Positions 56-30,706 of a stretch of DNA of 40,682 nucleotides are shown in pieces. Positions within the stretch are counted from its first letter, which is position 1; each line of letters opens with the position of its first letter. Below the pieces are notes generated by a model. That model saw nothing but the letters and a program-made list of their open reading frames with translations. It had not been told where the DNA came from and did no database searches. Position numbers and translations under genes: made by a program. The DNA is from a virus, in the IMG/VR virus record IMGVR_UViG_3300045988_125212; one strand, written 5' to 3'.

Positions 56-2008
56 AAAGCTGCAGCGGCTTCGGCCGCAACTGAAGCATCAAAGGCCGTT
101 AAGAAGTCTGGCGACTCCATGTCTGGCCCACTTTCCATGGAGGGGAACAAACTCACTGGGTTGCCGGATCCATCGAACGATGGGGATGCCGTGTCAAAGG
201 GGTATCTAAATACTGAGCTTAGCAGGATACAGGGGGCCCCTGGACCTTATTACACCCCCACTGTAACGAACCCCACGCCCGGTCTGCTGCACATTGAGTT
301 TGGCAAAAGCCTGACCAGCATGCCGGACATTCCGGGTGTGGACGTGTCTCTGCCCTCTGGGGAAGCTGGCGACGACGGCGGATATTATATTCCGAAGATA
401 TCTCAAACCGGGATCAACACTATGCAGATGGGTTTCGATCCGAGTAAACCGGGAATGACATCAGTGCAACCCAGGCAAATTGTGCTCCCGAAGGGGGATC
501 CTGGGCAGGATGGCGTATCCCCCACCATATCCATCACTACCATCACCGGCGGCCACCGGCTGACTATCACGGATGCGGAGGGCCCCAAGAGCGCTGATAT
601 ATTGGATGGCGCAACCCCCGCCCTGCAAATCGGCACGGTGACCACACTGCCTGCCGGAAGTCCCGCCACGGCTGAGATTACCGGGACCGCCGCCAATCCC
701 GTGCTCAGTTTTGGCTTGCCCCGAGGAGCTGACGCGACTGGCGGCAGTGCTGGCGTCACGACGATCAACGGACTTGACGGCGCAGTCAAATTGCCGGTGT
801 CGGGGAGCTGCATCTGCAACTCCAACGCAGCTGACAAGCGGAAAGTGCTTACCGTCGTTACCGCCGGATTTGACCCGTCGGCTGATGGGGCTATACTGGC
901 AGTGCAGTTTAAAAGCCCAGGTAATACAGCGAGCGGCCCCGAACTGCAGATCGGACAAACCGTGTACACAATCCTGCACCCCGGCAATCTGACGCCACCG
1001 GCAGCATCTGCGTTGAAGAAATCAGTACACCACTTTTCCATGCGGGGCAGCACCCGCGCGGCTATCCTGCTTGATCCGTACGTAGCGCCAAGCACCGTCA
1101 ACGTTGACGCCACCCTGACCCAAAGCGGACAAGCTGCAGATGCCAAGGCCGTAGGCACAGCCCTGGCAACCCGTGTCCCCGCCGCACCGCTTGAGTCGGA
1201 CGCTGGCAAAGTCGCTACTGTTGGCTCAGACGGAATCCCCCGGTGGGAAACACTCCCCGCAGTAGGCTCACTATTTGGACTATGTTCCACCGCAGCATAT
1301 GATCCTTCGAAGAAAGCAACCTCCGTTGACGGAGATATCGTGGGCGGCGCGATTATCACAGTGGAGTTTACCAACGCCAACGAAGCAGAGAATCCGACTC
1401 TGACCGCCAATGGCGTAACCGGCGCGATAGTCGGACGCACTTTGGACCCCATCAGTGCTACAAGCCTTACAGCCGGTGTGCACAGATTTGTATGCCTGAG
1501 CAATTACAATAAGTGGATGATGTTGGACGCGCCGGACGAGCTGGAGTATATAGGCGAGTATACGCTGGCAGAGGATGTCGGTGTGTGGGAAATCGCATCT
1601 GATTTAAGCGGGGCCCCACTGCAGCTGAAGAAGATGTATTTTGAGTTGCACATCCAGCCAGCGCAAGTCAACATTGATAATAATATTTCTAACACCCATG
1701 CACGGATGACCGTCCCCACCTGGGCAAACGCATACGGAGTAAATACGTGCGTGTCGGGTTATCCGATGCTGCGCAAAACGGCGTACAAAGAAAATCCTGG
1801 ATGGGGCCAGCTGTGGGAAATCAGGACGCTGAATGGGCGTAACGTTGTATTTCGGCGCAGTAAAGGTGCCAGCTGCGCCGCAACTGTGTCCGCCGGAGAG
1901 GCGGCGGGGCCAGGCCATATCACAGGGCTTGGCCTAAGCTCTCTCGACCCCACTAAGGCACAGTTTGGAGCTGGCAGCACAGTAAAAATTTGGGGGGCGA
2001 AAATATGA
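2..2008 (+). CDS. Tail fibre protein, C-terminal part. It continues in frame from 40167..40682 across the circular junction, 822 aa in total.
   Basis: The frame is open from base 2. 40167 and 119 are in the same phase once the 55-bp overlap is removed. Contains the motif GDSMSGPLSMEGNKLTGLPDPSNDGDAVSKGYL and a collagen-like GDPGQDG. Lies after the portal and before the lysis genes. Confidence 0.8.
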   Translation, partial: ADQANANAERAAERAKQAKAAAASAATEASKAVKKSGDSMSGPLSMEGNKLTGLPDPSNDGDAVSKGYLNTELSRIQGAPGPYYTPTVTNPTPGLLHIEFGKSLTSMPDIPGVDVSLPSGEAGDDGGYYIPKISQTGINTMQMGFDPSKPGMTSVQPRQIVLPKGDPGQDGVSPTISITTITGGHRLTITDAEGPKSADILDGATPALQIGTVTTLPAGSPATAEITGTAANPVLSFGLPRGADATGGSAGVTTINGLDGAVKLPVSGSCICNSNAADKRKVLTVVTAGFDPSADGAILAVQFKSPGNTASGPELQIGQTVYTILHPGNLTPPAASALKKSVHHFSMRGSTRAAILLDPYVAPSTVNVDATLTQSGQAADAKAVGTALATRVPAAPLESDAGKVATVGSDGIPRWETLPAVGSLFGLCSTAAYDPSKKATSVDGDIVGGAIITVEFTNANEAENPTLTANGVTGAIVGRTLDPISATSLTAGVHRFVCLSNYNKWMMLDAPDELEYIGEYTLAEDVGVWEIASDLSGAPLQLKKMYFELHIQPAQVNIDNNISNTHARMTVPTWANAYGVNTCVSGYPMLRKTAYKENPGWGQLWEIRTLNGRNVVFRRSKGASCAATVSAGEAAGPGHITGLGLSSLDPTKAQFGAGSTVKIWGAKI

Positions 2009-2160
2009 GAGTTTGCAAAGACGGCGTTTGCCGAGATGCCACGCCGGAGGAGATGGCAGAAATGGAGGCGCTGGCGGCAGAAACGCCGCCCGAGCCCACG
2101 CCGGATGAAAAAATAGCCGCCCTACTGGCGGCAATCGAGGGAGGAATTAAGGATGCCTAA
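2005..2160 (+). CDS. Small phage protein (51 aa), below the ORF-track cutoff
   Basis: ATG 2005 overlaps the tail-fibre stop (ATGA). TAA 2158-2160 overlaps the next ATG at 2153. Sequence MRVCKDGVCRDATPEEMAEMEALAAETPPEPTPDEKIAALLAAIEGGIKDA. Confidence 0.5.
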   Translation: MRVCKDGVCRDATPEEMAEMEALAAETPPEPTPDEKIAALLAAIEGGIKDA

Positions 2161-2584
2161 TATCTACAAAGCCCTGGAGGCTATGGTGCGCCGCGCCGCC
2201 CAGCAAGCCCGGGCGGCAGCGCCTACAGCTGCTGCAGATGATGTAATCGCTGATATGGCGTTGCTCCAGGAGTGGGATCCCGGCAAGTACGCCGTTGGCG
2301 ATGTGCGGACGCATGTCGGCCAGCCCTGGCGTTGCTGCCAGGCGCACGATAGTACGAGCAACGAGATCTGGGCCCCCGGGGCCGTACCGGCGCTATGGGC
2401 CCCATATCATGCCACATCGGCTAAGTGGGCACTGCCTTGGGTGGCGCCCTCCGGTGCCCACGATGCCTACCAGGCGGGCGAGTACATGATTTGGGCGGAT
2501 GAGCTGACTTATAAATGCCTGGCGGATGCTACGGTGCACGGGCCGGATGTGCTGCCAGGCAGCTGGGAGGTGATAGAGCGGTGA
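2153..2584 (+). CDS. Putative carbohydrate-binding (CBM5/12-like) tail accessory protein
   Basis: Two aromatic motifs, YAVGDVRTHVGQPWRCCQAHDSTSNEIWAPG and YQAGEYMIWADELTYKCL, resemble chitin-binding type-3 domains (recalled pattern). Translationally coupled to its neighbours. Confidence 0.6.
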   Translation: MPNIYKALEAMVRRAAQQARAAAPTAAADDVIADMALLQEWDPGKYAVGDVRTHVGQPWRCCQAHDSTSNEIWAPGAVPALWAPYHATSAKWALPWVAPSGAHDAYQAGEYMIWADELTYKCLADATVHGPDVLPGSWEVIER

Positions 2585-2850
2585 TCGTCGACGCACAAAC
2601 CGTCATCACATTAGCGGCTGTGGTATCCGCTCTGGGTGGCCTTCTGGCCCTGCTCCGCCGGGTGTCCAGGTGGGTGGATCGACAGCAGGCGCAAGATGCT
2701 GAAATCAGTAACATAAAGTCCGAGCAGCAAGTGATTTGCTATGCGCTACTCGCTTGCCTCGACGGATTAAAGCAATTGGGCGCAAATGGAAACGTGACAA
2801 AAGCACATGATGCTTTGGATAAGCATCTAAACAAAAATGCACATCATTAA
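2581..2850 (+). CDS. Small N-terminally membrane-anchored protein (holin-associated?)
   Basis: GTG 2581 overlaps the upstream TGA (GTGA). Hydrophobic segment ITLAAVVSALGGLLALL followed by a charged helix. The ORF-track start at 2515 lies inside the previous gene. Confidence 0.6.
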   Translation: MIVDAQTVITLAAVVSALGGLLALLRRVSRWVDRQQAQDAEISNIKSEQQVICYALLACLDGLKQLGANGNVTKAHDALDKHLNKNAHH

Positions 2851-2862
2851 GGAGGTAAAATC

Positions 2863-3126
2863 ATGGATTTTGGAATTGCAAGCGTGGCAGGAATTACGGT
2901 GATTTGCTATCTGATCGGCCAAATCATCAAGGCTACCGGCCTGAATAATAAGTGGATTCCCTGCATCGTGGGCACCGCAGGAGCGGCGCTGGGGGCTGTG
3001 GGGATGTACATCATGCCCGATTTCCCAGCGGGGGACGCGCTGACAGCTGTGGCTGTTGGCATTGTATCGGGCTTGGCTGCCACCGGCGTGGATCAACTGG
3101 GCAAGCAGCTGGGCAAGGGGGAATGA
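2863..3126 (+). CDS. Holin (Hol44-like)
   Basis: RBS TAAGGAGGT upstream. 87 aa with hydrophobic segments, MDFGIASVAGITVICYLIGQIIKATGLNNKWIP... Sits directly upstream of the endolysin. Confidence 0.75.
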   Translation: MDFGIASVAGITVICYLIGQIIKATGLNNKWIPCIVGTAGAALGAVGMYIMPDFPAGDALTAVAVGIVSGLAATGVDQLGKQLGKGE

Positions 3127-3132
3127 GGAGCA

Positions 3133-3438
3133 ATGAAGAAGATCTTTGCTTCGCTGCCCATGGCGGGTAAAAGCTACGCAGAAATCCGGAAGGGGCAAGA
3201 ATCTCTGCTGCGGAAAGCAAAAGATATTTTGGGGGAGCCGGTTGAACTGATTGAAAGCCTTTTCACAGACGCGCCCAATGGCTCTGCTCCGCTTTGGTAT
3301 CTTGCAAGGTCCTTGGAGCTGCTTTCCAGTGCAGACTATGTCATTTTTGCAGATGGCTGGGCCACGGCGCGGGGCTGCAGAATTGAGCACAGATGCGCCG
3401 TGGAATACGGAATCAAGATTTTGGGGGAGGAAGGATAA
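3133..3438 (+). CDS. DUF4406 / nucleoside 2-deoxyribosyltransferase-like protein
   Basis: MKKIFASLPMAGKS...SADYVIFADGWATARGCRIEHRCAVEYGIKIL matches the recalled DUF4406 pattern (PM.G at the N-terminus, GW..SRG...E at the C-terminus). Confidence 0.55.
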   Translation: MKKIFASLPMAGKSYAEIRKGQESLLRKAKDILGEPVELIESLFTDAPNGSAPLWYLARSLELLSSADYVIFADGWATARGCRIEHRCAVEYGIKILGEEG

Positions 3439-3439
3439 A

Positions 3440-4624
3440 ATGAAAATCAAACAGCAGTTTGCCACTCGCAACGACTGCTACCGGCGCAATCAGGCAGAGC
3501 TGGACAAGTCCACCGGCAGCCGCGACAGCCGATACGACCGATACTATCAAGGCCCCAGAGGGGTGATGATCCACTCCACCGGGGCCAACAACCCCAACCT
3601 GAGGCGCTACGTGCAGCCGGATGACGGCACATTGGGGGTCAATCCCAATGGCAACGACTGGAACCGGCCAGGGCTGGATGTGGCAGTCCACGCCTTCATC
3701 GGACTGACCAAGGCGGGAGACGTGGCAGTCTATCAAATTCTGCCCTGGGAATACAGGGCTTGGCACTGTGGCGGCGATGCCAATAATACCCATCTTTCCT
3801 TTGAGATTTGTGAAGATGATCTTGGAGACCGGGACTATTTTTGGTCCGTCTATTGGGGAGCTGTCGCCTTGACGGCTGAACTGTGTCGGAAGTTCGGCCT
3901 AAACCCGCTGGAGCCAGGTGTGGTAATCAGTCACGCAGAAGGGGCCCAGATGGGTATCGCCAGCAACCACGCCGATGTTGGCCACTGGTGGAGCCGCTTT
4001 GGCGTCACCATGGATGACTTTAGGGAGGATGTCTCCGATGAGATGAATGCTAGCGCCCGGCCCTTATACCGGGTGCGGCGCACCTGGGCGGACAAGGATA
4101 GCCAGGTTGGCGCGTTTGCAGATTTGGATAAGGCAAAAGCCGCGTGCCCTGTGGGATACAGCGTATATGATTCTGCAGGAAACGCCGTTTACACAAACAC
4201 AAATAAGGAGGACAAGAACATGACGAAGGAAGAGTTTCGGGAGATGGTCAACACTGCGGCGTCCAATGCCGCGAGCGCCGCTGTGGAGAAAAAGCTGGGA
4301 AAGTATTACAAAACGCTCGGTGATGTCACGAGCAATACTTTCCTGGAGGCCCTTTCGCCGCTGGTGGCAAGTGGGGTCTTGAAGGGGCGTGGCGGGTCCG
4401 GCAATGACCTCATTCTGGACATGCACGAGGAGTCGTTGAGAATCCTTGTGATCCTGTCCAGAATCATGAGCGAAGTCGGCCTCATTGCCCCGCCTGAGGA
4501 TGCGGACCATCCCGAGGATGTGCTTATGCATGTGGCAGACGTCTCCGCATATGCTGCAGATGAGGCAGTGGAGGCCCATGAAAAGCAGTACCACACGATC
4601 ATTCGGCTTGACGCCGAGGAGTAA
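3440..4624 (+). CDS. Endolysin: N-acetylmuramoyl-L-alanine amidase (Amidase_2/PGRP-like) with a C-terminal extension
   Basis: RBS GGGAGGAAGGA then ATG 3440, directly after the upstream TAA. The ORF-track start at 3251 is an upstream read-through. Contains the cell-wall-binding-like motif YRVRRTWADKDSQVGAFADLDKAKAA. Internal SD plus in-frame ATG at 4220. Confidence 0.8.
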   Translation: MKIKQQFATRNDCYRRNQAELDKSTGSRDSRYDRYYQGPRGVMIHSTGANNPNLRRYVQPDDGTLGVNPNGNDWNRPGLDVAVHAFIGLTKAGDVAVYQILPWEYRAWHCGGDANNTHLSFEICEDDLGDRDYFWSVYWGAVALTAELCRKFGLNPLEPGVVISHAEGAQMGIASNHADVGHWWSRFGVTMDDFREDVSDEMNASARPLYRVRRTWADKDSQVGAFADLDKAKAACPVGYSVYDSAGNAVYTNTNKEDKNMTKEEFREMVNTAASNAASAAVEKKLGKYYKTLGDVTSNTFLEALSPLVASGVLKGRGGSGNDLILDMHEESLRILVILSRIMSEVGLIAPPEDADHPEDVLMHVADVSAYAADEAVEAHEKQYHTIIRLDAEE

Positions 4625-4634
4625 CACGCAAAGA

Positions 4635-4680
4635 AAAATTGCTCCATCCACCGGGGACATCCTGGGGATGGAGCAATTTT
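4635..4680. terminator. Bidirectional intrinsic terminator between the convergent late operons
   Basis: 15-bp arms aaaattgctccatcc / ggatggagcaatttt with A and T tracts on either side. Confidence 0.75.
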
Positions 4681-4692
4681 GCGTTTAAAATA

Positions 4693-4727
4693 GAAAATGC
4701 CGATGCGCATATCACATCGGCATTTTC
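4693..4727. terminator. Second bidirectional intrinsic terminator
   Basis: 13-bp arms gaaaatgccgatg / catcggcattttc with a 9-nt loop. Confidence 0.75.
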
Positions 4728-4870
4728 TATCCCGGGTAGGAGCTCGTTTCAATCCACACCAAGGCCAGGGCGGGGAAGGATTGGTAGGCAGCTAAATATA
4801 TTTGACCTTCTCCACGCCTCCTTGGAGACGTATTTACTATAGCACGTTTTGGCCCCGATGTCAATGCCGT

Positions 4871-7800
4871 TTACAAATAGATGTCTGCGAGGGCCCTTGC
4901 CGTTGCGTAGTCTACACCAAACTCCTCCATGCACCACCTTGTGAGTCGGTCCTTTTGGCCTTTTCCCGTCCCCTTATTTCTCGCGTACTCCCTATATAAC
5001 TCCACCCATTCACCCGCGCTGATTCCAATGTCAATAGCTTTGTTCAGGCCCTTTTCCATGGAATCTGGCAGGTAAGTCCGGATTGTCAGCTCCTCCTGTT
5101 CTGGCGTCATCCCCATCCCGTGGATAGCCTCCATTTTCTGGACATTGCTTACAGAGTCCTTCCCGTCTTCAGGGGTCAACCCGCGCATGAGGTCCGCTAC
5201 TTTCTTAGCCTTGTCCGCTTCCAGTCCGGACCCCGTCAACTCGCCGTACTTCCCGGAATCCTGACGCAGGGTAGTCGTAAAGCCCAGGGTGCTTAGCAGG
5301 GATGACTTCAGCCCATTTGGAACTCCCACCTTGTCGAGGTTATAATTCCAGTCAAGGGCTTTCTCCGCTGCAGGCTTGTCTTGAGCAGAGATGTACCGAT
5401 ATGTCCGATAGACCCGCAGAAATAGCCCAGAGTCTTCTCCGGATTGTCGGACAGCAATGTAGGCCTTCGCCGCGCTGGTTAGGTTGTTATATGCCTCTGT
5501 CTTTCCGCCCTTCAGGCTTTTGTAGAAATCATAGGCATCTTCTAGCTGCTTTGGGTCCGGGGACTCCCCCTGTTTCCATGCCTGTGTAACGTCTTCTAAC
5601 GCGCTGGAGAAGCGGCTTTTTGAGTCCAGAATGTCCACGTATTGCGCTGGGGTAAGCTTCAGCTCGTCCATTTCTGCCAGCTGGTTTTCCGTCATCCCAT
5701 ATACCTTGAGCCATGACTTTTCATCATTCTTTTCGCTGACGCTCAGCACCGCCCGGTACTTGTCGTAGTTGGTCGGATCCTCAACCCCCTTGAGCTTAGA
5801 CGATACAGCCCGGAATGCGGCTTTCATCTGCTCCGTGCTGAAGCCTGCCTCGACAGCCCTGTCGTACGTTTTTTCGGAGGGGGCCCCCACATCGGACACG
5901 GCAGCTCGCTTCAGAATCGCGGAGACGGCCTTGTCTCCAATGTCCCCGCCAAGGTCCTCCATCCACGCGGCATCCATCTCTTTATACCGGTCCGGGAGAG
6001 CTTCCTTTCTGCCAATCTCCCTGGCGTAGTCATACGCAGACTCAATGGCTTTCTTCTTCCCTTCGTCTGTGAGACCCTCGTAGGCCTCCTGGCCTAGCAT
6101 CTTCGACACTAGGTCATATGACACCGACCCCTGCTTTTCGGCCAGAGTGCGCCACTCCTCCGCCGTCAGGGCCACCTTCTTGGCCCCGTCTGGAGTCTTG
6201 ATTGTAATCGTGCGGTTTGCGTCCCTGGGAGATGGACTGTCTCCGGTGGTGGCAGCCAGCCTGTAGAGCTCCTGGTCCGCTTGAGTCTCGTTGATTTTTG
6301 ATGTATAGGCCGGATTCAAGAAAGCGTTAAAAACTCTCTGGAAGAAGTTTCCCTTTCCCTCTTTCCGCCCCCACTCATCTACATACTCGACCTGGAAGAA
6401 ATCTCCCGGTAACTTTTGGAACGCTCGTCCAGCAATCCGCTGTAGCTCTTTTACTACCGGGTCGCTTGACGTGGTGTACACCGTCTTCCGGTTTTTATCT
6501 GCCGCCTGGTCAAACTGGCCGAACGCGGTAGGAAGGGCCTGCATCAGGTATGAGGTGGCAGAGCTGATAATGAGGCTCCATATTTCATTCCCGTCATCCG
6601 TGTACCTAGCGGACGATATCAAGTCGTTGAGACTTGACAGACACGACAGTTCCAGTAGCGGTTCCATTGCGTTGCCAGCGCCATAAATAATTGCTGTTAC
6701 GGCACTCGTATCATCTCCGTACTCGCCGGATGCTGCTTTTTGCGTTTCCACACCCATAAAAAACGGTATGGCTGCGGGAGCGAGCCAATCAAGCGAGACG
6801 CTGGTATCTCCGAGGACCAGTTCATAGGCCTGGTGCCCGGTCCGGTCCTCATCATCGCCCAGCTCTCCGCCTCTCACGACGCCCAGGCTTCCCAAAAGTG
6901 CGCCGAGTGCATACACGCCCGTACCGGTCAGTCCAGCAGACAATGTTTCCATACACTCCGCTGCGGTCATCTCCCCGTCCCGCACCTTGGAAAAATACTG
7001 ATACCCTGCTCTGACAAGCCCAAACGGGCTGTATTCCACGCTTCTTACGACGATATTGGCCGGGGTCTTCCGGAAGGGAAGGACACCTTCGAAGAACACC
7101 TTCTTGGCTGCCTCCATTACTCGGTTCTCGCTTTTCTTCCGCCCGAACTGAGATACGGCCTTTGAGAAAGCATTCAAATCATTGAATGTCGCTTTCATTG
7201 CCTCGTTGACCGCATAGGACCGGGCTTCTTGCAAGATTTGATCTGGGACCTTTCCATCCAGGACTTCGGATGAGGAGTATCCCCGTGCCTTGATAAACCC
7301 GGCCAGGCTGGATGCGTACGCAGAGCGCTTGAAGAACAGGTCTTCCGCCTCTAGGGCATTGGAGTTTGCGTTAGACAGTTTGTTTAGGGCTTCATTCTTA
7401 AATATCTTTCGATACTTCTGGATTTCCGACTTCGCGGAATCACCGGACTTCCCGCTGTACTCCATCATCTCAGACACGGTTTTGCTTTTCGCGTCGGATT
7501 TTGCCCAAGATAGCAATTCCCGACTCTTTTTGCCGAGCCCTATTACAGACTTCGTACGCTGTTCTTTGGGGAGCGCCCGTTCCAACGCGGACCCGATTGC
7601 TCGTTTAACGTCCACATATGGGCGGAATGCAGCGTTTCCTATGACATTTCGCACGTGTGTTTTGACGTTTCCAAGCATGGACATGTACCGCCAGGAGTCA
7701 AACTTTTCGTCAAGCGTCCCAGGCATTTGCGCGGCAGCATACTCGTATATGGCGGACAATGCATCGATCTTCCCGGCATCGGATGCATCCGCCATGTTAT

Positions 7801-10800
7801 TTCCCACTGCGTTTGCGGCGGACACCTCTCGTGACTTGCTACTGCCGCTTAGTTCTTGCAGGTATTCCTGTGACAAGGAATCCGGGATCTGGATTGTTTC
7901 TGGCATGCTGCCTTCTGCTATCTTTTTCCCGAATTTCTTCTGGTAGTACCGGTTTATGTTCTCCTTTACAGCAGATAGCTGCCCTTCCGGGGTCATTTGC
8001 CGCAACATTTTGTGCAGTTGTAAGGCCCTGCCAGCAACTCTGGCCATGTCTGTCATATCGACGAACAATTTGGCGGCGGTCTCCTGGCTTTTTTGGTCCT
8101 TACTATTGGCGTACTTAGAGTACAGAAGTTGAGCGGCAGCAATTTCAGTCTCTCCAATTTCCCCGGTTTCTGCAGCCTTGGAGATCCGCCACATCATGGC
8201 TTCTTCTCCACCAGAGGAAACTTCTTTGGCGGCGTTCTGCAACGTATCCCGGTTGGTTTTCGTGTCAGCCCCCACAATGCCGTCTGTGACCATTTTTTCT
8301 ATGACTGGGATGAAACTATCTGGGGTTACTTTGGCCCCGTAAGCGTTCGCCACGAAGTCTGAGACACGCTTCCCATTCCCGTCCCTTTTCGGGACATTCA
8401 TAGGCCTTGCGTCATTTCTTCGGTCAGGTTTGTTCCCACTTTCGTACTGGAGGGAGGTGTACGGGTCAAACCCTCTCGGGGCGGCTCCTGTGGAGGCGTC
8501 CTTGTTTTTGGCGCTTAATCCTCCCAGTCCGGACCGTACATTGCTTCCATATACCGCTCCAGCCCCTTCCGAATTATCATCGTTAACTGGGACCCCTCCC
8601 GTTTGTCGTTTTCTCGAGCTTGCTGCAGGAGCGTCATGTCCTCTTCTTTCATCGTACGTCCCGTCGAAAGTTCCTGCGGCTCTTCCCGTCTCTGATTCAT
8701 AACGTTTTATGCCTCCCTCTAACACTGTCCGTATGGTTGTGGGTTCTTCAAACAAGCTGTCTTGGTCAGGGCTCCCGAGAGATTGTAGCTCATCGAAGAT
8801 GCAGGAAAGCATGGTCCTAATCTGCGCCCCGCTTCGCTTATTCGCTTGAATGAAGTTGGCGATTAAGACCTCGCTTGACGAGTATCCATCTCCGATGGTG
8901 ACTTGATCTGCGATGTTGTCAGGGGTTGTCCCCTCGTTCTTTGCCCGCAAAAATAACTGGACCGCACCAATGACTGCATCCGGCAAGTTTACATCATATT
9001 GGGACCCAGATGCGACAGACTCTCTCGCTCTGGCGACCTGTGGAGCTACAGCCAGAAGCGCATTGGTCACATTTTTGGCGTCATTCCCAAGGCTCTCTGT
9101 GAGCCGTGTAAGAAGTTCCTCATCTCCATAGGCGTAAGAAAAGATTGCGTTCTGGACTCGAGACAGCCCTTCCTGGGATAGGGTCCCGTTGGATGTTACG
9201 ACCCTTGCCCGATCTGACTCTGGCACAACCTTCTCGACAAAAGCAGATATGAATTGCTTGTTTCCTTTCGCGTTGAGGTCCCCTGATTCGTCTACGCTCA
9301 GCATGGGAATGACTTCTCCCATATTTTTTGAATCATTCAATGCGGTCTCTGCAGCCGAATAAGAAGAAGTCGTTGAGTTGTTAAGTGACGACGCCAGCCG
9401 GGACCAGTCCACATCCCCGGTCGGGATCCGGATTAGAACAGGGTTGTCCGGAAGGCGCTGCGGGTCCAACCCATACTCCTGTGCATGGCTCCGGACATAC
9501 TCTGCATACTCGTTGGCCGAGCCGTTTTTGTATGCAGTGGAAATGGCTTGGGCCCGGGCATTCCCGCCAATAACAACCCCGTCGCCCCTTACAATTGGCG
9601 CTCCGTTTTGAGCCGTTGGGGACTCTGCGAGAAGAGCCGGGGTTAGGTTCTTTGCGATTTTGCTGACTTGCAATTGGGACGCGGCCCGTGACCGGTCTCT
9701 TGGTTGCAAATCAGAAGGATACGCGGCGTTCGCGGCTCCAAACTCGTCATGAGACGTGACCAAGGAATCAGCCGGGACCACAGCCCATCTGTAGCCAATT
9801 TCCGAGTTATCCTCCCCATAAGTCTTACCAGACGAACCAAACGCGGCAGATGGATCACTCGCAACCGAATTGTACTCTCCAAATTCTGTGTTGTCAACAG
9901 TCCCGTTGATTGTTTCCTGGGTGGGTCCCGCGCTAGCAGCCGGTCTGAACGTGTCCCGCATTGCCTGGTTCAATGCCTCTTCGTTTGATTTTGGGGAAGG
10001 GGATTCGGCCTCATTTCGAGGTTCTGCGGGCGGGTTTTCGGGATCACCGCTGTTGCTGCTGCCTCTCCTGCTAGTCAGGAGCCCTTTTGCCCCGACTCCT
10101 GCGGACATCATTCCGCCAGAGAGGAACGACACCGCCGCCGTGCTGGCGGCCTCCTTTATGTTATCGTTCAGAACTGCGGCGTTTGCTTCTTCCAGCGTCA
10201 TTCCTGCCGCGATGTATGCCTGACGGGCCTGGTTGGACTTTGAGTTTTTCTGCAAAATCACCGCTTCTGCCAGGAGGTTTCCGGCAAGAGACAGCTCCTC
10301 TTCGGACACTTCCACTCCACCCTGGATTGCTGCGTTTTTCAGTAGTTCTTTGATCGTGGAGGGGTCATCCGCGTTGAGCAGCCGGTCCAGGGACACCTTC
10401 TCCGTAAGGACTTCCAAGGCCCCAGAGGCCACGCCCATTGCTACAGCTTGGGAAGGAGAAGCCCCGCGCTCAGATGCCTCTTGCACGCCGCTCTGGAATG
10501 ACCCCAGTCCGGCCAGTGTCAGGGAGCCAGCCCCGCCGGTAAGCCCAACCCTAGCCAGATTATCTGCGGCAGACATGCCAGCAGAATATAGGGTCCCGAG
10601 AGCCTTTCCGCCGACACCCGGGACAGCCTCTTGTATGTCATTCTGCGTTTCTTCACGTACAGTTCCCGCCCACTTGCTGGGGTTGTATCCGGGTAGATTG
10701 GGATTCATGGTGTTGTAGTTTGATCCACTCGTTGACCGTCTAATGGATTCGTTTATTGCGCTCGCGGCCCCGGTTACGCTTCCCACGATATTCTGGGGGA

Positions 10801-25724: not shown

Positions 25725-26072
25725 CTATCGCCCCCCCTCTGCGTATGCCGCCACCAGAAGCTCTTCGATGTTATCGTCCATCCGATCGGCACATACGGTA
25801 ATGGTGCCATCTTGATATGGGCAACTGCCGCAGTCCCGCGGATTCGCGCGGCAAATGCGAAGCGCCCCCATGACATTGTCCGCTTTAGCCTTATACAGAG
25901 ACAGCATCTTCAACACGGCTATTGCTGTCTGTAAAGCCTCTGCCCTTTCGCTGTGATACCATTCGGCAGTGTAGTTCCCATTGGATTCTGCAAACGTTTG
26001 CAAGCTGAATTCTTTCTTGTGCATCCCTTGGAGCACAGCAATGGCATCAAGTCTCTCCATCATTGATCTCAT
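25725..26072 (-). CDS. Hypothetical protein
   Basis: 115-aa ORF. The Met at 26063 or 26060 has better RBS spacing. Confidence 0.5.
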   Translation of the reverse strand: MRSMMERLDAIAVLQGMHKKEFSLQTFAESNGNYTAEWYHSERAEALQTAIAVLKMLSLYKAKADNVMGALRICRANPRDCGSCPYQDGTITVCADRMDDNIEELLVAAYAEGGR

Positions 26073-26538
26073 CCTCCTCCTGCTCCCGCAGCTCCGGGCA
26101 CACTGCCGGAATCACCCATAGAAGCATCGTCGCATATATCTCATCCGAAAAATCCCGATCACTGGCCAAGTGCGGCTTGACCAAGCGCTTGGCCCAGATC
26201 AGATTCGGTGTAAGCAGGGCCACCGTCAGCGGATCAGTAACCAACAACCCGGCATCCAGGACGGCCAGCAACTGATTCATGATGTCAGCATCCCACGGAG
26301 CTTGACTCTGTGCGATAGCCTTGCACAGGGTGCGCAGCAGCTCCGCCTGATCCTCGGCCTTAGCGCTCGGCTGCTGGGCCACCTCTTGTTCCTTAAGTGC
26401 CTGGAGCCCCGCAGTCAGTGCGTGCACCTTGTCCCAGGCATTGTCGGGCAGGCAACCACCCTGGGAGTCGCAGCGCAAGATCTCCAGTTCGTCTCGGATC
26501 ATGGACTGCAACAGATCGCATTCTTCCTCTCTGCTCAT
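26047..26538 (-). CDS. Hypothetical protein
   Basis: RBS AAAGGAGGA then ATG 26538. Confidence 0.55.
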   Translation of the reverse strand: MSREEECDLLQSMIRDELEILRCDSQGGCLPDNAWDKVHALTAGLQALKEQEVAQQPSAKAEDQAELLRTLCKAIAQSQAPWDADIMNQLLAVLDAGLLVTDPLTVALLTPNLIWAKRLVKPHLASDRDFSDEIYATMLLWVIPAVCPELREQEEDEINDGET

Positions 26539-26768
26539 TTTTTATCCTCCTTTATCATCTTTTTATTCCCCGTGGATACTTTTATCCCCAGGACTTCTTC
26601 AATCGCGGAGACCATATTGGGAGATGAGATTTTCCCGTTGAGCACTCTCCCGATATAGTGGCGGTCGGCGTATCGTCCGGTTCTCTCCCTGACCTGCGCC
26701 GCAAGCCAGTCTGTATTGTGGCCCCTTCGGACTAGGGCCGCCTTCACCTTGCGGAACTCGTTAGTCAT
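26535..26768 (-). CDS. Small HTH-like regulator
   Basis: ATG 26768 overlaps the upstream TGA. RBS GGAGGG. Sequence MTNEFRKVKAALVRRGHNTDWLAAQV... Confidence 0.5.
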   Translation of the reverse strand: MTNEFRKVKAALVRRGHNTDWLAAQVRERTGRYADRHYIGRVLNGKISSPNMVSAIEEVLGIKVSTGNKKMIKEDKK

Positions 26769-27181
26769 ACTCCGCCCTCCCAAAACTGGGCGAACCGCTC
26801 TGGGCCGACCTCTGCACGCAGGCGCTCCGGAGAAATAAAGTATCGGTACCGCTCCTTGCAGAGCACGGCGGATCCGATGCTTAGGGCTCCGGTCTGGAGT
26901 CCCCTCTTAATGAAGGACGGAGGGACATCCATGCAAGCGGCAGCCTCCTTGACGGATATCCGCCAGCGAGACCTCTTCGCTGGGGAGCAAAGGTCCTCTG
27001 GAGTCGTCTGCAGCGCGTCCGCCAACCGTTGAAGCGCATTGGCACGGGGCGCACACTTGCCGGACATGTACTCGGATAGGCTTGATGCCGGGACCCCGGA
27101 CACCTCAGACAGCTGCTTCTGGGTCATTGCTCGCTCGGTAAGTAGCTGGTCAAGCCTGCCTTTATTTAGTTTTTTCCCCAT
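26765..27181 (-). CDS. XRE-family HTH protein with an extra C-terminal domain
   Basis: RBS AAGGGGGA then ATG 27181. Motif LDQLLTERAMTQKQLSEVSGVPASSLSEYMSGK. Confidence 0.7.
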   Translation of the reverse strand: MGKKLNKGRLDQLLTERAMTQKQLSEVSGVPASSLSEYMSGKCAPRANALQRLADALQTTPEDLCSPAKRSRWRISVKEAAACMDVPPSFIKRGLQTGALSIGSAVLCKERYRYFISPERLRAEVGPERFAQFWEGGV

Positions 27182-27329
27182 TGTTTTCTTCCCCCTTTCT
27201 GTCATCACGCAGAGATGCCCCTGCGCTTACGCCCTGAGCAAACACTAGGATTCGCTCTCTAGCATCGTCAGGAAGGTTGCCCGCAATTTTTGCAATATTT
27301 GCCACAACCTTTTGTTGTTTGTCGCTCAT
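27162..27329 (-). CDS. Small hypothetical protein (55 aa) that overlaps both neighbouring genes
   Basis: RBS GAAGGAGGTGG plus 5 nt then ATG 27329. Confidence 0.45.
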   Translation of the reverse strand: MSDKQQKVVANIAKIAGNLPDDARERILVFAQGVSAGASLRDDRKGEENNGEKTK

Positions 27330-27492
27330 TTCGTCCACCTCCTTCAATATCTGGTGTTTCTCCGCTGTGCTGCGATATCCAGTCCCACAGTATGCCGCGG
27401 ATGAGTCCCGTCAGCGTCTGGCCTCTTTGGGCGGCAGTTTCTTTCAATTCGCCATGTAGATCGCGCGGGATTGTAATCAGAAACCGTATCAT
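27268..27492 (-). CDS. RHH (CopG-like) regulator; first gene of the leftward operon
   Basis: MIRFLITIPRDLHGELKETAAQRGQTLTGLIRGILWDWI shows a beta strand followed by two helices. Confidence 0.7.
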   Translation of the reverse strand: MIRFLITIPRDLHGELKETAAQRGQTLTGLIRGILWDWISQHSGETPDIEGGGRNERQTTKGCGKYCKNCGQPS

Positions 27493-27525
27493 ATTCGGCC
27501 GCCTTTCCTCAAATCTGATATCTAT

Positions 27526-27554
27526 ATGATATCAGATTCGCGCCGTGCTGTCAA
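27526..27554 (-). promoter_or_regulatory. Leftward promoter, overlapped by palindrome 1
   Basis: Minus strand reads TTGACA, 17 nt, TATCAT. Confidence 0.55.
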
Positions 27555-27580
27555 TATCTTTTTGATATCTTTTTGAGTAC

Positions 27581-27609
27581 TTGCACCTCGCCTGGCGATT
27601 TGATATGAT
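27581..27609 (+). promoter_or_regulatory. Rightward promoter, abutted by palindrome 2
   Basis: TTGCAC, 17 nt, TATGAT. The 12-bp palindrome starts 1 nt after the -10 element. Confidence 0.55.
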
Positions 27610-27641
27610 TTTGATATCAAATTAAGAAAGGAGGTGGTACC

Positions 27642-27830
27642 GTGCCACAGCCTAATCCTTATCCGCTGCGCGTGGACCGTACGCTGCTTGAGAAGTTCAA
27701 AGTCATCGCGAAAGCACATGGGCGATCCGTTAACAAGGAACTGGAGATGATGATTAAGTCATCCGTTATTCAGTATGAGGATCTGCACGGGATGATTGAG
27801 ATTCCAGGCCTCGGAGGAGGAGCCGGATAA
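27642..27830 (+). CDS. Arc-family RHH repressor
   Basis: RBS AAAGGAGGTGG then GTG 27642. PLRVDRTLLEKFKVIAKAHGRSVNKELEMMIKSSV parallels the recalled P22 Arc sequence ...LVRKVAEENGRSVNSEIYQRV. Confidence 0.7.
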   Translation: MPQPNPYPLRVDRTLLEKFKVIAKAHGRSVNKELEMMIKSSVIQYEDLHGMIEIPGLGGGAG

Positions 27831-28095
27831 CGGTCTCGTTAAAACTGTCTCCTCTCCTATCCGCCTCCTTCTGCAGTTGCTCCTTCAACTCAGTGGGGAG
27901 GCGGATTGTCGTCTGTGCTCGCTCCATCGTGGTCACCTCCTTTCTCGGGACACCATCAGGCGGGGCCTTTATGCTTACGGCATAAGTATATATCCTATAT
28001 TCCTTTTGGGAAAGCGATTTGCTTGTTCGGAGCTCTTTGAGCCGCACAGCGATGCCAGGCAGGGGGGCCTGGCCTATTTTTTTAGTATCAGCCAC
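27766..28095 (-). CDS. RHH protein with two RBS-supported starts: GTG 28095 (109 aa) and ATG 27927 (53-aa RHH core)
   Basis: TAAGGAGGTGAGG then GTG 28095; AAAGGAGGTG then ATG 27927. Core sequence MERAQTTIRLPTELKEQLQKEADRRGDSFNETVIRLLLRGLE. Overlaps the Arc-like gene tail-to-tail by 65 bp. Confidence 0.6.
   Translation of the reverse strand: MADTKKIGQAPLPGIAVRLKELRTSKSLSQKEYRIYTYAVSIKAPPDGVPRKEVTTMERAQTTIRLPTELKEQLQKEADRRGDSFNETVIRLLLRGLESQSSRADPHTE
28054..28083 (+). terminator. Plus-strand intrinsic terminator located inside the minus-strand 109-aa reading frame
   Basis: GCCAGGC-AGGGGG-GCCTGGC followed by CTA and seven T residues. Confidence 0.7.
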
Positions 28096-28118
28096 TTCCT
28101 CACCTCCTTATACCGCAA

Positions 28119-28147
28119 ATTATAACAGGCCGGACACGCACAGTCAA
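28119..28147 (-). promoter_or_regulatory. Strong minus-strand promoter that faces the rightward promoter
   Basis: Minus strand reads TTGACT, 17 nt, TATAAT, about 15 nt upstream of the RBS of the 28095 start. Confidence 0.6.
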
Positions 28148-28190
28148 GCAAAAAATATCCAGCAAGGATAATTCGGGGCTTGACAAATAG

Positions 28191-28532
28191 GAGTTCGCGG
28201 CAAAATTCGGCGTCGCGCAAAATGCGTATAGCCGGTATGAGACCGGGAGCGTCCCTCTGCCCCTGGTGGCCCTGGATAACCTGTGCAAGACATATAATGT
28301 CAGACGCGAGTGGCTTGAGACAGGGGAGGGGAGCATGTACGTAGAAGAACCAGTAGACGCAGAGATTGCGAAGTATTTCGCAAACGTAATGGGAGGTGCC
28401 GCTCCGGAGTTCCAGCGGAGGCTGGCGGCGGAAATGGCCAGGATGCCGCCAGAAGCATGGGAGGCCCTGGAGCAGTTTGCCGTCATGCTGGCCAGGGCGG
28501 CAGGAATTGAGACAGGAGAGGAGCAGGGTTAG
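28191..28532 (+). pseudogene. 5'-truncated CI-like XRE HTH repressor remnant, with no canonical start and an in-frame TAG at 28188
   Basis: ...GLDK*EFAAKFGVAQNAYSRYETGSVPLPLVALDNLCKTYNVRREWLETGEG. The first in-frame start is GTG 28266, after the HTH. It has its own terminator. Confidence 0.55.
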
Positions 28533-28551
28533 TCCTGCTCCTCTCCTTTTT
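28514..28551 (+). terminator. Intrinsic terminator of the HTH remnant
   Basis: 14-bp stem aggagaggagcagg / cctgctcctctcct followed by TTTTT. The stop codon lies in the loop. Confidence 0.7.
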
Positions 28552-28732
28552 GCGTCAAGAGAAATTGAGATATGATGATGCAAATGTACTCATAGTTTGA
28601 CTGGTTAAGTTTACACAATAGTTCTACAATTTCATTAACATCGTCTTTCGTCCTGTATTCAACCACAATTTCACACCCCCGATTTGTAGCAGAACAGGAG
28701 CCAATTTTACCACAGTATGAATGGGTAGTCAA
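28529..28732 (-). CDS. Low-GC small ORF; doubtful moron or toxin-like peptide
   Basis: TTG start at 28732, or GTG (VVEYRTKDD...) after GGGGGTG. The 3' end is formed by the terminator stem. There is a hydrophobic stretch YICIIISQFLL. Confidence 0.25.
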   Translation of the reverse strand: MTTHSYCGKIGSCSATNRGCEIVVEYRTKDDVNEIVELLCKLNQSNYEYICIIISQFLLTQKGEEQD

Positions 28733-28779
28733 GCGCTCTCCGGTTGGTAATTTTATCTAGACAGTACTCGAATTTTTTG

Positions 28780-28808
28780 TTGACAATTCGACACATTAAT
28801 GTTAGCAT
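28780..28808 (+). promoter_or_regulatory. Candidate integrase promoter
   Basis: TTGACA, 17 nt, TAGCAT. Confidence 0.4.
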
Positions 28809-28869
28809 CGGAGCGAACAGATTGTCGTATCGCCGTGCTACTGGCGGAGAAAAAGGGGGAATCAGTACG

Positions 28870-29868
28870 ATGCGACTACCTAACGGATATGGATCGGTTG
28901 TAAAAATGTCTGGGAACCGTAGAAGACCTTACGCAGTCAGGAAGACAGATGGGTTTAACGAAAAAGGATACCCAATATATAAAATAATAGGCTATACAGA
29001 GACAAAAGAGGAGGGGCTTTCGCTGCTTGCAAAGTACAACGAAAGCCCATGGAATATAAATGAACAAAAAATTACTCTTTGTAGATTGTTTGAGTGGTGG
29101 GAAACGTATAAGGTCCCGAAACTCGGGAATAAGAATGCCGCAAACTTAAAGGGTGTGTACAGTTATATTGCGCCTCTATCTGAGATGCAATATAAAAGCA
29201 TAAAACTGCCGATGATGCAAAGTACTATAGACAACTGCCAGCGCGGAGCGCCAACGCAAAGGAAGATCAAGGCCTTGTGGGGACATTTGGACGCGGCGGC
29301 GCTGGAGATTGACATCCCAGTACGCGGCTACGCTAAATTACTGACAACGGATCCGGAAGATCCCGCAGAGAAAGTCCCATTCACCGAAACCGAAATAGCC
29401 AGACTGTGGGATCATCAGGCCGAGCCACTTGTGGATAGCATCCTAGTGCTTATCTACAGCGGTTGGCGAATATCTGAGCTGCTTGCATTAGAGAAGGCCA
29501 ATATTGACTTGGAGGCCAGGACCATGAGGGGCGGAGGGAAGACGGAGGCTGGAAAGAATAGAATTGTGCCAATTCATAATAGGATTATGCACATGATAGA
29601 GCACAGGATGGGACTTGACGGGAATCTATTGTTTGATGTAAAGATTACAACTTACAGAATGAGATGGGGCGAGATAATGGATAGGCTGGGCATGCACCAC
29701 ACGCCCCACGAGTGCAGGCACACATTCCGCTCCAGGTTAGACGCTGCCGGAGCAAACCCCAAAAGCTGCGACCTGCTCATGGGCCACAAGTCGCAGGATG
29801 TCGGCAACCGTGTGTACAATCACAAAACGCTGGAGGACTTGCGAACGGCGATTGATCTTCTCGAATAG
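28870..29868 (+). CDS. int: Tyrosine integrase with an AP2-like arm-binding N-terminal domain
   Basis: RBS AAAGGGGGA then ATG 28870 (MRLPNGYGSVVKMSGNRRRPYAVRKT). Catalytic-region motifs RISELLAL, HECRHTF, LMGH, VYNH. Ends in TAG. Confidence 0.9.
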   Translation: MRLPNGYGSVVKMSGNRRRPYAVRKTDGFNEKGYPIYKIIGYTETKEEGLSLLAKYNESPWNINEQKITLCRLFEWWETYKVPKLGNKNAANLKGVYSYIAPLSEMQYKSIKLPMMQSTIDNCQRGAPTQRKIKALWGHLDAAALEIDIPVRGYAKLLTTDPEDPAEKVPFTETEIARLWDHQAEPLVDSILVLIYSGWRISELLALEKANIDLEARTMRGGGKTEAGKNRIVPIHNRIMHMIEHRMGLDGNLLFDVKITTYRMRWGEIMDRLGMHHTPHECRHTFRSRLDAAGANPKSCDLLMGHKSQDVGNRVYNHKTLEDLRTAIDLLE

Positions 29869-29904
29869 TTCGGATTTTGTCCGGACTTGCCCGTGCGGCA
29901 AATC

Positions 29905-30112
29905 CGGACTAGTAACAAATAAGTAGCACGAAAACCCGGGAGGCCCCGTATTATGGGGCTTTCCGGGTTTGCTGTGTCTCCCCACACAGGGGCACATGCG
30001 AATGTTATGTGCAAAAAAGTTCACAGTATAACTACTTTTGGGGTAGTTCCGAATACTAAAACTAGCTATTTGCAGGTACCGGAAGGATACTGCTAGTAGC
30101 ACGCTAGTAGCA
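29905..30112. other. Probable attP region with arm-type direct repeats
   Basis: AGTAGCACG occurs at 29922 and 30096. Tandem GCTAGTAGCA at 30092 and 30103. A related ACTAGTAAC at 29908. The core was not identified. Confidence 0.45.
29932..29970. terminator. Hairpin downstream of int
   Basis: aaacccgg-gag-gcccc gtattat ggggc-ttt-ccgggttt. Confidence 0.55.
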
Positions 30113-30138
30113 ATCAACTAAGCCGGAAAAGTTATGTG

Positions 30139-30167
30139 TTGACAATGCGGACATTATGAGATATAAT
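30139..30167 (+). promoter_or_regulatory. Perfect-consensus SigA promoter
   Basis: TTGACA, 17 nt, TATAAT. Confidence 0.65.
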
Positions 30168-30173
30168 ATAATA

Positions 30174-30232
30174 TTTGTAGAAAATTGAGGGAGAAAGCAC
30201 GGAAATTCGTGCCGTCTCCCTCTTTATTATTT
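30174..30232 (+). ncRNA. Candidate ~55-60-nt small RNA: a promoter followed directly by a terminator hairpin
   Basis: The predicted transcription start site (TSS) near 30174 is followed by the hairpin at 30187..30222 and TTTATTATTT. There is no ORF. Confidence 0.35.
30187..30222. terminator. Bidirectional hairpin; also the terminator of the minus-strand early operon
   Basis: gagggaga-aa-gcacg gaaatt cgtgc-cg-tctccctc, 8+5 bp. The early operon stops at 30227. Confidence 0.7.
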
Positions 30233-30706
30233 CCCATCTCCCGGCTCATCCGAATTTTTGGATGATGCCGACCGCCCACGGCGAGGGCGCCCATACACAG
30301 CCTCCGCCTCCTCCCTTGCGGCAATGGCGTCGTCCAGGTGCCTATACGAGCCGAGGGCTATCCGCTCCCCTCGCACGCCAATGCGTGCGACCCAGGCCCG
30401 GTTTGAAGCGGACCAGGACACGCCCGGGACCGTGGCCGCTTTGGCCAGGTCTTCTGGTGTTGGGCCGTCCGCGGCATCATCTTCCTTGATGATGTCAAGC
30501 GGAGTTACCCCAATCGCCGCAGCGATGCGCACCAGAGACTCCAACGTGCGGCGGTTGGTCCGCCCGGCCTCAATCTCCTTGACAACGAAGACGGAGACCC
30601 CGGAAAGGCGGGCCAATTCCTCCTGTGTAAGCCCGGCTGCAATCCGGAGGGCAGCGAGCTTGGACTTTCCTTTTCCGCGCCGAGGCGCGGAATAATCAAT
30701 TGGCAT
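30227..30706 (-). CDS. XRE HTH plus AP2-domain fusion protein
   Basis: RBS AAGGAGGAG then ATG 30706. HTH motif LRIAAGLTQEELARLSGVSVFVVKEIEAG. AP2-like motif GVSWSASNRAWVARIGVRGERIALGSYRHLDDAIAAREEAEAVYG. Confidence 0.7.
   Translation of the reverse strand: MPIDYSAPRRGKGKSKLAALRIAAGLTQEELARLSGVSVFVVKEIEAGRTNRRTLESLVRIAAAIGVTPLDIIKEDDAADGPTPEDLAKAATVPGVSWSASNRAWVARIGVRGERIALGSYRHLDDAIAAREEAEAVYGRPRRGRSASSKNSDEPGDGK

Follow-up and report, generated by a model that had tools for sequence, protein, structure and literature searches.

A 192-bp inversion behind an apparent convergent promoter switch in a temperate human-gut phage

In the immunity region of the virus record IMGVR_UViG_3300045988_125212, two promoter-like sites face each other across two small, convergent and overlapping genes of the ribbon-helix-helix (RHH) type, and the locus raises the question of whether this arrangement is the design of a phage switch or the result of a rearrangement. 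An earlier note on this DNA had described an unrecognised switch with roughly 0.5 kb of convergent overlap, in which a leftward promoter fires into an RHH gene with two alternative starts. The window analyzed here, a stretch of 40,682 nt, is the complete, circularly assembled genome of an uncultured temperate human-gut phage (~40.6 kb, 53.7% GC); the circular assembly follows from a 55-nt terminal overlap. Our comparison with intact relatives shows that the leftward promoter and the long start are the promoter and codons 1-30 of the repressor gene of this very phage, reversed by an inversion of 192 bp. The switch does not hold up as a phage design, since the window carries a mutant allele and the intact relatives are un-inverted. 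Positions are those of the window unless another locus is named, and breakpoints in other alleles are numbered as in the reference locus L001.

The inverted segment and the split repressor gene

Intact reference loci were L001, which served for the main comparison, and L015 and L016 from another collection. By blastn against L001, the window was collinear over 27000-28015 and again over 28191-29000 (28193 onwards matching L001 10094-10903 at 99.8%), with positions 28005-28190 corresponding to L001 10091-9906 in reverse at 98.9% identity. The stretch 28001-28192 is opposite in orientation to all three intact relatives. It consists of a 184-bp core (28005-28188) bordered on either side by the left-site overlap (TCCT, 28001-28004; AGGA, 28189-28192), and its flanks have no common inverted repeat longer than 4 nt. 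The features concerned are the following.

28001..28192, no strand assigned: inverted segment of 192 bp, from blastn against intact L001 and an exact fit of the junction model described below
28119..28147, minus strand: promoter of the XRE/CI-like repressor gene, TTGACT-17-TATAAT, TG-extended, 11/12 matches, from the promoter scan; now leftward to the RHH gene
28006..28095, minus strand: first 30 codons of the XRE repressor with the GTG start (MADTKKIGQAPLPGIAVRLKELRTSKSLSQ), cut off from the remainder of the gene; same residues as at the N-terminus of intact P0001 (144 aa)
28193..28532, plus strand: 3' part of the XRE gene, running from ..FAAKFGVAQNAYSRYETG.. up to its stop codon, with neither start codon nor promoter, from translation and collinearity with L001
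27766..28095, minus strand: chimeric 109-aa open reading frame (ORF; P0023) made of XRE residues 1-30, a junction-derived K, the translated 5' leader and the 53-aa RHH protein, from the junction model
27985..27990, minus strand: -10 hexamer TATACT of the native RHH promoter, parted from its -35, from comparison with L001
28180..28185, plus strand: orphaned -35 hexamer TTGACA of the native RHH promoter, at the far end of the inverted segment, from comparison with L001
28054..28083, plus strand: hairpin and T-run within XRE codons 4-14, terminator-like on the plus strand only when inverted
28514..28547, plus strand: strong terminator of the XRE gene with a 14-bp stem (-29.9 kcal/mol, z=-5.6), from the terminator scan and folding

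Residues 1-30 of the 109-aa ORF resemble helix 1 of an XRE-type helix-turn-helix (HTH), and a start-less plus-strand frame opens at 28191, reads EFAAKFGVAQNAYSRYETGSVPLP... and stops at 28532. Joined to each other, the two parts give a 144-aa protein that matches Pfam HTH_3 from end to end (1-55/55, E=1.7e-11) and is present intact in other contigs (P0001, 98% identity, 100% coverage). The HTH_3 domain, which is divided in the window between the minus strand (28095-28006) and the plus strand (28193 onwards), becomes whole only after un-inverting. In intact L001 the TTGACT-17-TATAAT promoter lies on the plus strand at 9949-9977 and is directed into the XRE gene, whose ribosome-binding site (RBS) is also inside the inverted segment. 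The near-consensus leftward promoter that had been noted at 28119..28147 is indeed there, with 11/12 matches and an upstream TG, but it is the flipped XRE promoter. Of the two starts proposed for the RHH gene, the ATG at 27927 opens a 53-aa ORF that matches RHH_1, whereas the GTG at 28095 belongs to the N-terminus of the XRE repressor. Similarly, the plus-strand terminator proposed at 28054..28083 has the hairpin and the T-run but is a by-product of the flip, and intact phages carry it on the other strand (minus strand of L001, 10042-10023).

The junction model predicts the peptide of the chimera exactly (..LSQKEYRIYTY..). The K in ..LSQKE.. arises from the duplicated AGGA (majority parent sequence), and a lineage polymorphism was rejected as its source. 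The chimeric protein of the window is present in two sources, Logan and ENA.

In the native arrangement, the leftward early operon is followed by the GATATC operators, the rightward Arc-like gene, the 53-aa RHH gene convergent with it, the RHH promoter and the repressor promoter, the 144-aa XRE/CI-like gene with its terminator and finally the integrase; the gene order in L001 is Arc-like (+), 53-aa RHH (-), XRE (+), integrase (+). Two promoters with 11/12 matches stand back to back in L001, namely TTGACT-17-TATAAT directed to XRE and TTGACA-17-TATACT directed to the 53-aa RHH gene (9916..9888, minus strand), the latter ~160 bp nearer the RHH gene than the flipped promoter of the window. The left breakpoint falls inside the 17-nt spacer of this native RHH promoter, which the flip has cut between -35 and -10. 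The flip has also destroyed the repressor gene, with the loss of its promoter, its RBS and 30 codons, and the strong repressor promoter now points leftward through the RHH gene to the early operon. The terminator scan found no terminator-like site on the minus strand from 28147 to 26260, in agreement with the earlier note, which saw none before the operator region.

Part of the described arrangement is native. The convergent pair and its control region comprise the following features.

27642..27830, plus strand: Arc-like 62-aa RHH gene, Pfam Arc E=1.3e-5, 25.3 bits (cut-off 20.4)
27766..27927, minus strand: native 53-aa RHH gene in the Cro position, i.e., the first gene divergent from the repressor in intact phages, RHH_1 22.1 bits (cut-off 20.5)
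27581..27609, plus strand: promoter-like site for the Arc-like gene, TTGCAC-17-TATGAT, with a TGn extended -10, from sequence reading; -35 matching at 3/6, below scan listing
27526..27554, minus strand: promoter-like site for the leftward early operon, TTGACA-17-TATCAT, from the promoter scan
27512..27623, no strand assigned: operator region with two GATATC-type palindromes, 27512-27538 and 27598-27623, from the repeat search

The Arc-like gene, rightly assigned before, exceeds the curated Pfam cut-off and is retained by every related locus as well as by the more distant L014. Its tail-to-tail overlap with the 53-aa gene, reported at 65 bp, is present at 27766..27830 (L001 9669..9733) and conserved in the intact relatives, and L014 has a convergent Arc/RHH overlap of 56 bp with a GATATC-containing sequence at the equivalent position; the convergent pair with overlapping tails is native. 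The 53-aa gene is called as 53 aa in intact as well as rearranged contigs, and its exact sequence occurs on 414 contigs. The rightward promoter proposed at 27581..27609 is present too, although its -35 matches at only 3/6 positions and it relies on the TGn extended -10. The GATATC palindromes are native as well, and the -10 regions of the two divergent sites lie inside them, that of 27526..27554 in 27512-27538 and that of 27581..27609 in 27598-27623. A 74-aa ORF gave only a weak RHH_5 match of 15.9 bits (cut-off 26). Face-to-face promoters over the convergent RHH genes are conserved, but with TTGACA-17-TATACT as the native leftward partner, and convergent transcription over ~370 nt is plausible in the native phage. 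If a transcript from the Arc promoter remained unterminated in intact phages, it would cross the RHH gene in antisense and then continue into the repressor gene in the sense direction (27581-28532; L001 9484-10435), a layout reminiscent of an establishment promoter.

L014 (P0041) was considered as a distant case of the same inversion and rejected, as its native layout is different. There, at 743-1120, a Cro-like HTH is in frame with the RHH protein in a single 125-aa ORF, divergent from a 112-aa CI-like gene.

Recurrence and junction structure

Rearrangements of the same kind occur in other samples, in at least 38 distinct alleles at the protein level. In many database proteins, a shorter or longer N-terminal piece of XRE is joined to the RHH leader and body, and all three frames occur. 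The right breakpoints, in the XRE gene, fall at more than 25 positions within the coding sequence and truncate the repressor anywhere from residue 3 to residue 139, and the left breakpoint lies within the 9 nt of L001 9899-9907 in ~24 of the 38 alleles (p~5e-18 versus a uniform 118-nt interval). At the DNA level, 11 events were resolved on contigs from 13 samples of different studies, with inverted segments of 186-529 bp; several rearranged alleles are on complete phage-only contigs of 39.5-40.7 kb, and allele P0007 is the consensus in three runs. Because the flanks are nearly identical among all loci, the independence of the alleles rests on their differing junctions, and a phylogeny of single-nucleotide polymorphisms was rejected as proof of it. 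Among hot-spot alleles, the XRE fragment is in frame with the RHH protein in 13 of 23, where one third would be expected (p=0.02); in-frame alleles with late breakpoints keep the whole HTH domain joined to the RHH domain. A more complex rearrangement is seen in P0025 (69 aa, contig of 39777 bp), in which RHH codons 1-4 are followed in frame by the promoter region and then by the rest of the gene.

We described the junctions by a model of reciprocal exchange with an overlap of d nt, in which both junctions finally carry the overlap of the same site. In eight of nine length-conserving events at the DNA level, one site has gained by duplication exactly as many bases as the other has lost, and d=4 is the sole stagger compatible with all eight; for L009 no other value is possible, and L012 allows d=4-5 only. 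The left overlap was duplicated in four events and the right overlap in four, and in the window allele TCCT/AGGA was duplicated and CTGA of the XRE gene lost. The model reproduces the junction peptides of nine database proteins, and both sister products were found for two site pairs (P0007/P0006 at 9902/10340 and P0012/P0011 at 9904/10263). A tenth event, represented by P0211 and P0222 (both on contigs of 16,051 bp), fits d=4 by hand analysis of the two peptides. The ends are complementary over 0-4 nt, with small duplications and losses, and the identity between the overlaps of partner sites averages ~1.5/4. Five of seven right sites lie immediately 3' of an ATG (p=2e-8), usually with a G at +5. 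Larger deletions were observed in two events, L002 and L011, of which L002 is best explained by an inversion and a later deletion of 96 bp that spans one of the junctions, one end again lying at the hot spot.

These junctions indicate a conservative, reciprocal strand exchange that would involve cuts staggered by 4 nt. Two duplexes would be cut with the same 4-nt stagger, their halves swapped and religated with mismatched overhangs, and the mismatched 4-nt overlap would be separated at the next replication. As a result, one daughter would carry the overlap of one site at both junctions, and the overlap of the other site would be lost from it.

Candidate enzymes

Overlaps are typically 6-8 nt for tyrosine recombinases and 2 nt for serine recombinases. 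The genome encodes the following phage recombinase next to the repressor gene.

28744..29868, plus strand: tyrosine integrase, Pfam Phage_integrase E=1.3e-14

This enzyme was rejected as the agent, as d>=6 fails for all eight events with duplication and loss, and L010 shows neither. A serine invertase was rejected as well, d=2 failing for L009, L012, L004, L005 and L008, and no serine recombinase was found among the window ORFs scanned. Slightly favoured is an IS110-family (bridge-RNA, Piv-related) recombinase acting on pseudo-sites, preferred over the other candidate, a type IIA topoisomerase acting by subunit exchange.

A candidate source of the former is resident in the window.

12866..14698, minus strand: intact IS110-family insertion sequence (IS) of ~1.83 kb, ends mapped against other copies

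Its transposase, from the ATG at 14586 to the stop at 13306 on the minus strand, matches PF01548 (DEDD_Tnp_IS110, 5.5e-30) and PF02371 (Transposase_20, 2.3e-25), and a recombinase with DEDD (RuvC-like) and Tnp domains is available in the genome of the window. The IS sits exactly in the phage RBS between two phage genes, and its right end (..TTTAGGGAGG) rebuilds the RBS for the downstream gene, 11797-12861. Its relatives are multi-copy in gut Clostridia, all of them in A/T-rich AGGAGG contexts 5-8 nt upstream of an ATG, and the copies share GGAG at both ends, which is the overlap of the IS itself; the closest copy from a cultured isolate is that of Oscillibacter valericigenes An890 (91%). The 440-nt non-coding 3' end of the IS (12867-13305, minus strand) contains the guide-like words CAGGAATG, AGGAGCAT and ATTTAGG. 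The first of these is the reverse complement of the IS left end CATTCCTG, the second is also found as the first 8 nt of the left end, and ATTTAGG is right-end-like. From its sequence, this non-coding end looks like a bridge or seek RNA encoded downstream of the transposase; a search with Rfam returned no family in 26000-30500 or 12400-15200.

For IS621, the top strand is cut at 9/10 and the bottom strand at 9*/10*, which gives a 4-nt stagger with positions 6-9 as the overlap, and mismatches in the overlap are tolerated and thought to be repaired afterwards (PMC11208158); off-target recombination at half-matched sites has been reported in a preprint. Points of likeness to the IS621/Piv systems are the DEDD + Tnp recombinase in the window, the 4-nt cut offset, the tolerance of overlap mismatches, and the known capacity of the family for inversions and for off-target half-match events. 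GGAG, moreover, is the right overlap in three of nine events, including L002 as reinterpreted by hand (p~1e-3), and the hot spot reads TAG|GA, as does the right end of the IS.

Gyrase cuts DNA with a stagger of 4 nt. The 4-nt stagger and the homology independence expected from a type IIA topoisomerase are both found at the junctions, and an interface-swapping model has been put forward for illegitimate recombination by gyrase (Germe et al. 2024, PMC11164529). Likenesses to topoisomerase-mediated recombination (Ikeda; PMC11164529) also include the hot spots and the expectation of reciprocal products. The differences are the asymmetric site preference observed here and the clean in-place inversions in natural phage populations, which the published model is not known to give.

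Both assignments meet with contrary observations. An IS110 agent would have used the hot spot in three registers (9902, 9903 and 9904), and the right overlaps TACG, CTGG and GCCA are unlike GGAG. Between the non-coding ends of the IS and the hot spot, no guide-like match beyond 7-mers was found. In contrast to IS621/Piv, complementarity of a guide to the hot spot was not found, the core dinucleotide is unshared in most pairs (the last two overlap bases agree in only ~3 of 9 site pairs), and the natural target of the IS, an RBS with AGGAGG, is not where most events fall. The topoisomerase, in turn, is disfavoured by the asymmetry of the sites, whose preference ATG|NNNN|G has a G at -1 and a G at +5 on the same strand. 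It appears possible, but doubtful, that the resident RNA-guided IS110 recombinase repeatedly flips the repressor promoter at a pseudo-site and generates a repressor-less form in which the lysogeny promoter drives lytic genes. If true, this would be a natural, recurrent route of promoter capture from temperate to virulent growth by bridge-type recombination, and the first natural record of off-target inversions by the IS110 family.

Consequences, alternative readings and related systems

The rearranged alleles may rise to dominance as repressor-less, lytic variants. In a single step, the inversion would supply the repressor promoter to the lytic side and remove the repressor, and the lytic-side genes would then be driven by a promoter built for activity in the lysogen; had the stretch between these sites been deleted instead, neither the RHH gene nor the early operon would have a promoter. 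Selection is supported, but not proven, by the finding that rearranged alleles are the consensus of complete phage contigs. Similar support, again short of proof, comes from secondary deletions that bring the flipped promoter nearer to the early operon: judging from the proteins P0224, P0227 and P0231, these alleles have in addition lost both convergent genes (RHH and Arc-like), the operators and a portion of the 74-aa RHH gene, and the XRE fragment is fused to, or lies just upstream of, a 61-aa ORF of the early operon. In addition, eight variable sites (L001 9916, 9921, 9926, 9931, 9935, 9937, 9938 and 9955) fall in a 51-nt promoter/operator stretch, compared with five in 2,980 nt of flanks (p=4e-12). 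The stretch corresponds to L001 9910-9960, or window 28136-28186 on the reverse strand, between the back-to-back promoters; the changes are mostly in inverted alleles, and the window is changed at 9935. This cluster suggests selection on an operator upstream of the repressor promoter.

Several further observations weigh against our reading. The screen for rearranged alleles was protein-based and blind to deletions that remove the N-terminus and to inversions that leave the ORF intact, and because it misses such classes of events, the predominance of inversions is partly an ascertainment effect. L002 requires an extra deletion, the pure model accommodates L010 only if the exchange was blunt or staggered by 1 nt, and L011 lies at a contig end with its two junctions unpaired. 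The XRE protein is a putative maintenance repressor, taken as such from its adjacency to the integrase, its HTH domain and the divergent promoters.

Among the alternatives, the one that survives best, though we regard it as unlikely, is that the locus is just a mutational hot spot, with dead-end, defective genomes that are seen owing to the abundance of the phage. The hot-spot statistics do show a mechanistic bias that is independent of selection, and the lytic phenotype is a prediction. Against dead ends speaks the status of the rearranged alleles as consensus of complete ~40 kb contigs in several samples, P0007 in three runs, and the accumulation of secondary deletions and operator-region point changes on the inverted background.

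We give little credit to a programmed, reversible inverton, in which a dedicated invertase would toggle between repressor-ON and lytic-ON states. Its appeal lies in the very high recurrence at one hot spot, the conservative exchange with no net gain or loss, the presence of a Piv-family recombinase gene in the genome and the occurrence of both orientations in nature. However, a repeat search of 27400-28750 showed no inverted repeats at the borders of the segment, where an inverton would have fixed ones of ~10 bp or more and the complementarity here is 0-4 nt. The right end is scattered over more than 25 positions of a coding sequence, and in half of the products a return flip would replace 4 nt and so leave a scar. 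The flip also truncates the repressor and does not leave functional genes in both orientations, the secondary deletions are a one-way decay, and the IS, inserted in an RBS and with relatives in multiple copies elsewhere, does not count as a conserved gene of the phage.

Replication template switching, or microhomology-mediated end-joining of two breaks, is more improbable still. The short microhomology of 0-4 nt and the larger deletions in L002 and L011 would be in keeping with it, but it predicts neither the equal gain and loss in eight of nine events, nor the common value of 4, nor the sister products.

A native regulatory design, in which three RHH proteins, promoters facing each other over ~0.5 kb of convergent transcription and two RHH starts would form a switch, is very improbable in spite of the presence of all its motifs and the conservation of the convergent RHH genes with their overlap. 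The long start encodes the N-terminal end of the divided XRE gene, the other half of which stands start-less on the opposite strand, near-identical intact genomes have the opposite orientation, and other genomes have the same flip with different end points. Finally, an assembly or library artefact, from chimeric reads or mis-joined paths in a de Bruijn graph, is hardly credible: many contigs do come from automated short-read assemblies and the L011 contig end is internally inconsistent, but the inverted segments (186-529 bp) far exceed any k-mer and have no flanking repeats, the window allele is in both Logan and ENA, and the junctions obey a precise molecular rule, with predicted sister products found in other samples.

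We prefer, and consider likely, the reading of the window as one of many derived alleles in which a conservative exchange with a 4-nt stagger has inverted the repressor's own promoter and 5' end. The allele belongs to known kinds of change, immunity-region mutants and illegitimate or off-target recombination; its interest comes from the recurrence and the clean molecular signature. For the Roseburia intestinalis phage Shimadzu, ultravirulent mutants with point mutations in operator and cro have been described, the operator mutants sweeping in mice, as well as an inversion of cro plus promoter in a re-lysogenised prophage, interpreted as a cause of higher CI expression (Cornuault et al., bioRxiv 10.1101/575076). 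Both cases concern a temperate phage of a gut Firmicute with a cI/cro region rearranged under gut selection and a regulator gene inverted together with its promoter. In Shimadzu, however, the inversion is that of cro, whereas here the promoter and 5' end of the repressor itself are flipped and the repressor is destroyed, and dozens of independent alleles with a defined junction signature are found in human samples.

The phage systems usually invoked for such layouts are loose analogies. Phage P22 immI also has an Arc-family RHH repressor beside a second RHH gene, and divergent promoters with their -10s over palindromic operators. Here, in contrast, the RHH partners converge with a 3' overlap, the module sits between a CI-like repressor and the early operon, and no antirepressor follows the Arc-like gene: no Ant-like ORF was found in 27000-28800, where nothing but the 53-aa RHH gene, in antisense, comes after the Arc-like gene. 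Phages 186 and P2 share with this locus convergent promoters and possible transcriptional interference across intervening genes. In 186, the repressor gene is the convergent partner and the promoters are tens of bp apart, whereas the native pair here consists of two small RHH genes over ~370 nt, with the repressor divergent from the RHH gene in the intact relatives.

For annotation, the locus illustrates that the reading of a single genome can take a mutant allele for a design, as the unusual switch is a broken repressor gene. One small inversion abolishes the repressor and at the same time turns its promoter towards the lytic genes, and such events have occurred dozens of times in a single near-clonal phage present in many people. 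Should the phenotype be as predicted, this would be a frequent one-step route of a gut prophage to lysis, of relevance to phage blooms and to how stable bacterial populations in the gut are. As a natural collection of conservative exchanges with a 4-nt stagger, made between unrelated sequences and including both sister products, the junctions could settle the question of IS110-type recombinases versus type II topoisomerases in the wild.

The affiliation of the phage is indicated only loosely, by the relatives of its IS, which point to gut Clostridia and Oscillospiraceae as a candidate host group. Its terminase has just 48% identity, to uncultured faecal phages. No DNA match to 27200-28750 was found in the phage collection, and the repressor had no relative in IMG/VR or in GTDB representative genomes.

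Some minor observations concern the surroundings of the repressor gene and other parts of the genome. Between the XRE terminator and the integrase, a promoter-like TTGACT-17-TAAAAT with TG (28704-28732, minus strand) is directed into the XRE gene from behind, in antisense. Its transcript would be stopped ahead of the repressor promoter by the hairpin of codons 4-14 where this is in its native orientation, and in the window the hairpin is flipped. At the end of the L011 contig (positions 1-60), a junction of XRE ~10186 with the hot spot does not pair with the 10418/9842 junction, which reflects either several coexisting alleles or an inverted duplication. A 2303-aa ORF of the window (4871-11782, minus strand) has a ddrB-like ParB-superfamily domain at residues 658-787 as its sole Pfam match. 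In L015, at positions 1-7400, the intact allele adjoins another prophage, related to the first, that encodes an XRE homologue and an integrase of 332 aa, which suggests that two related phages integrated at one site.

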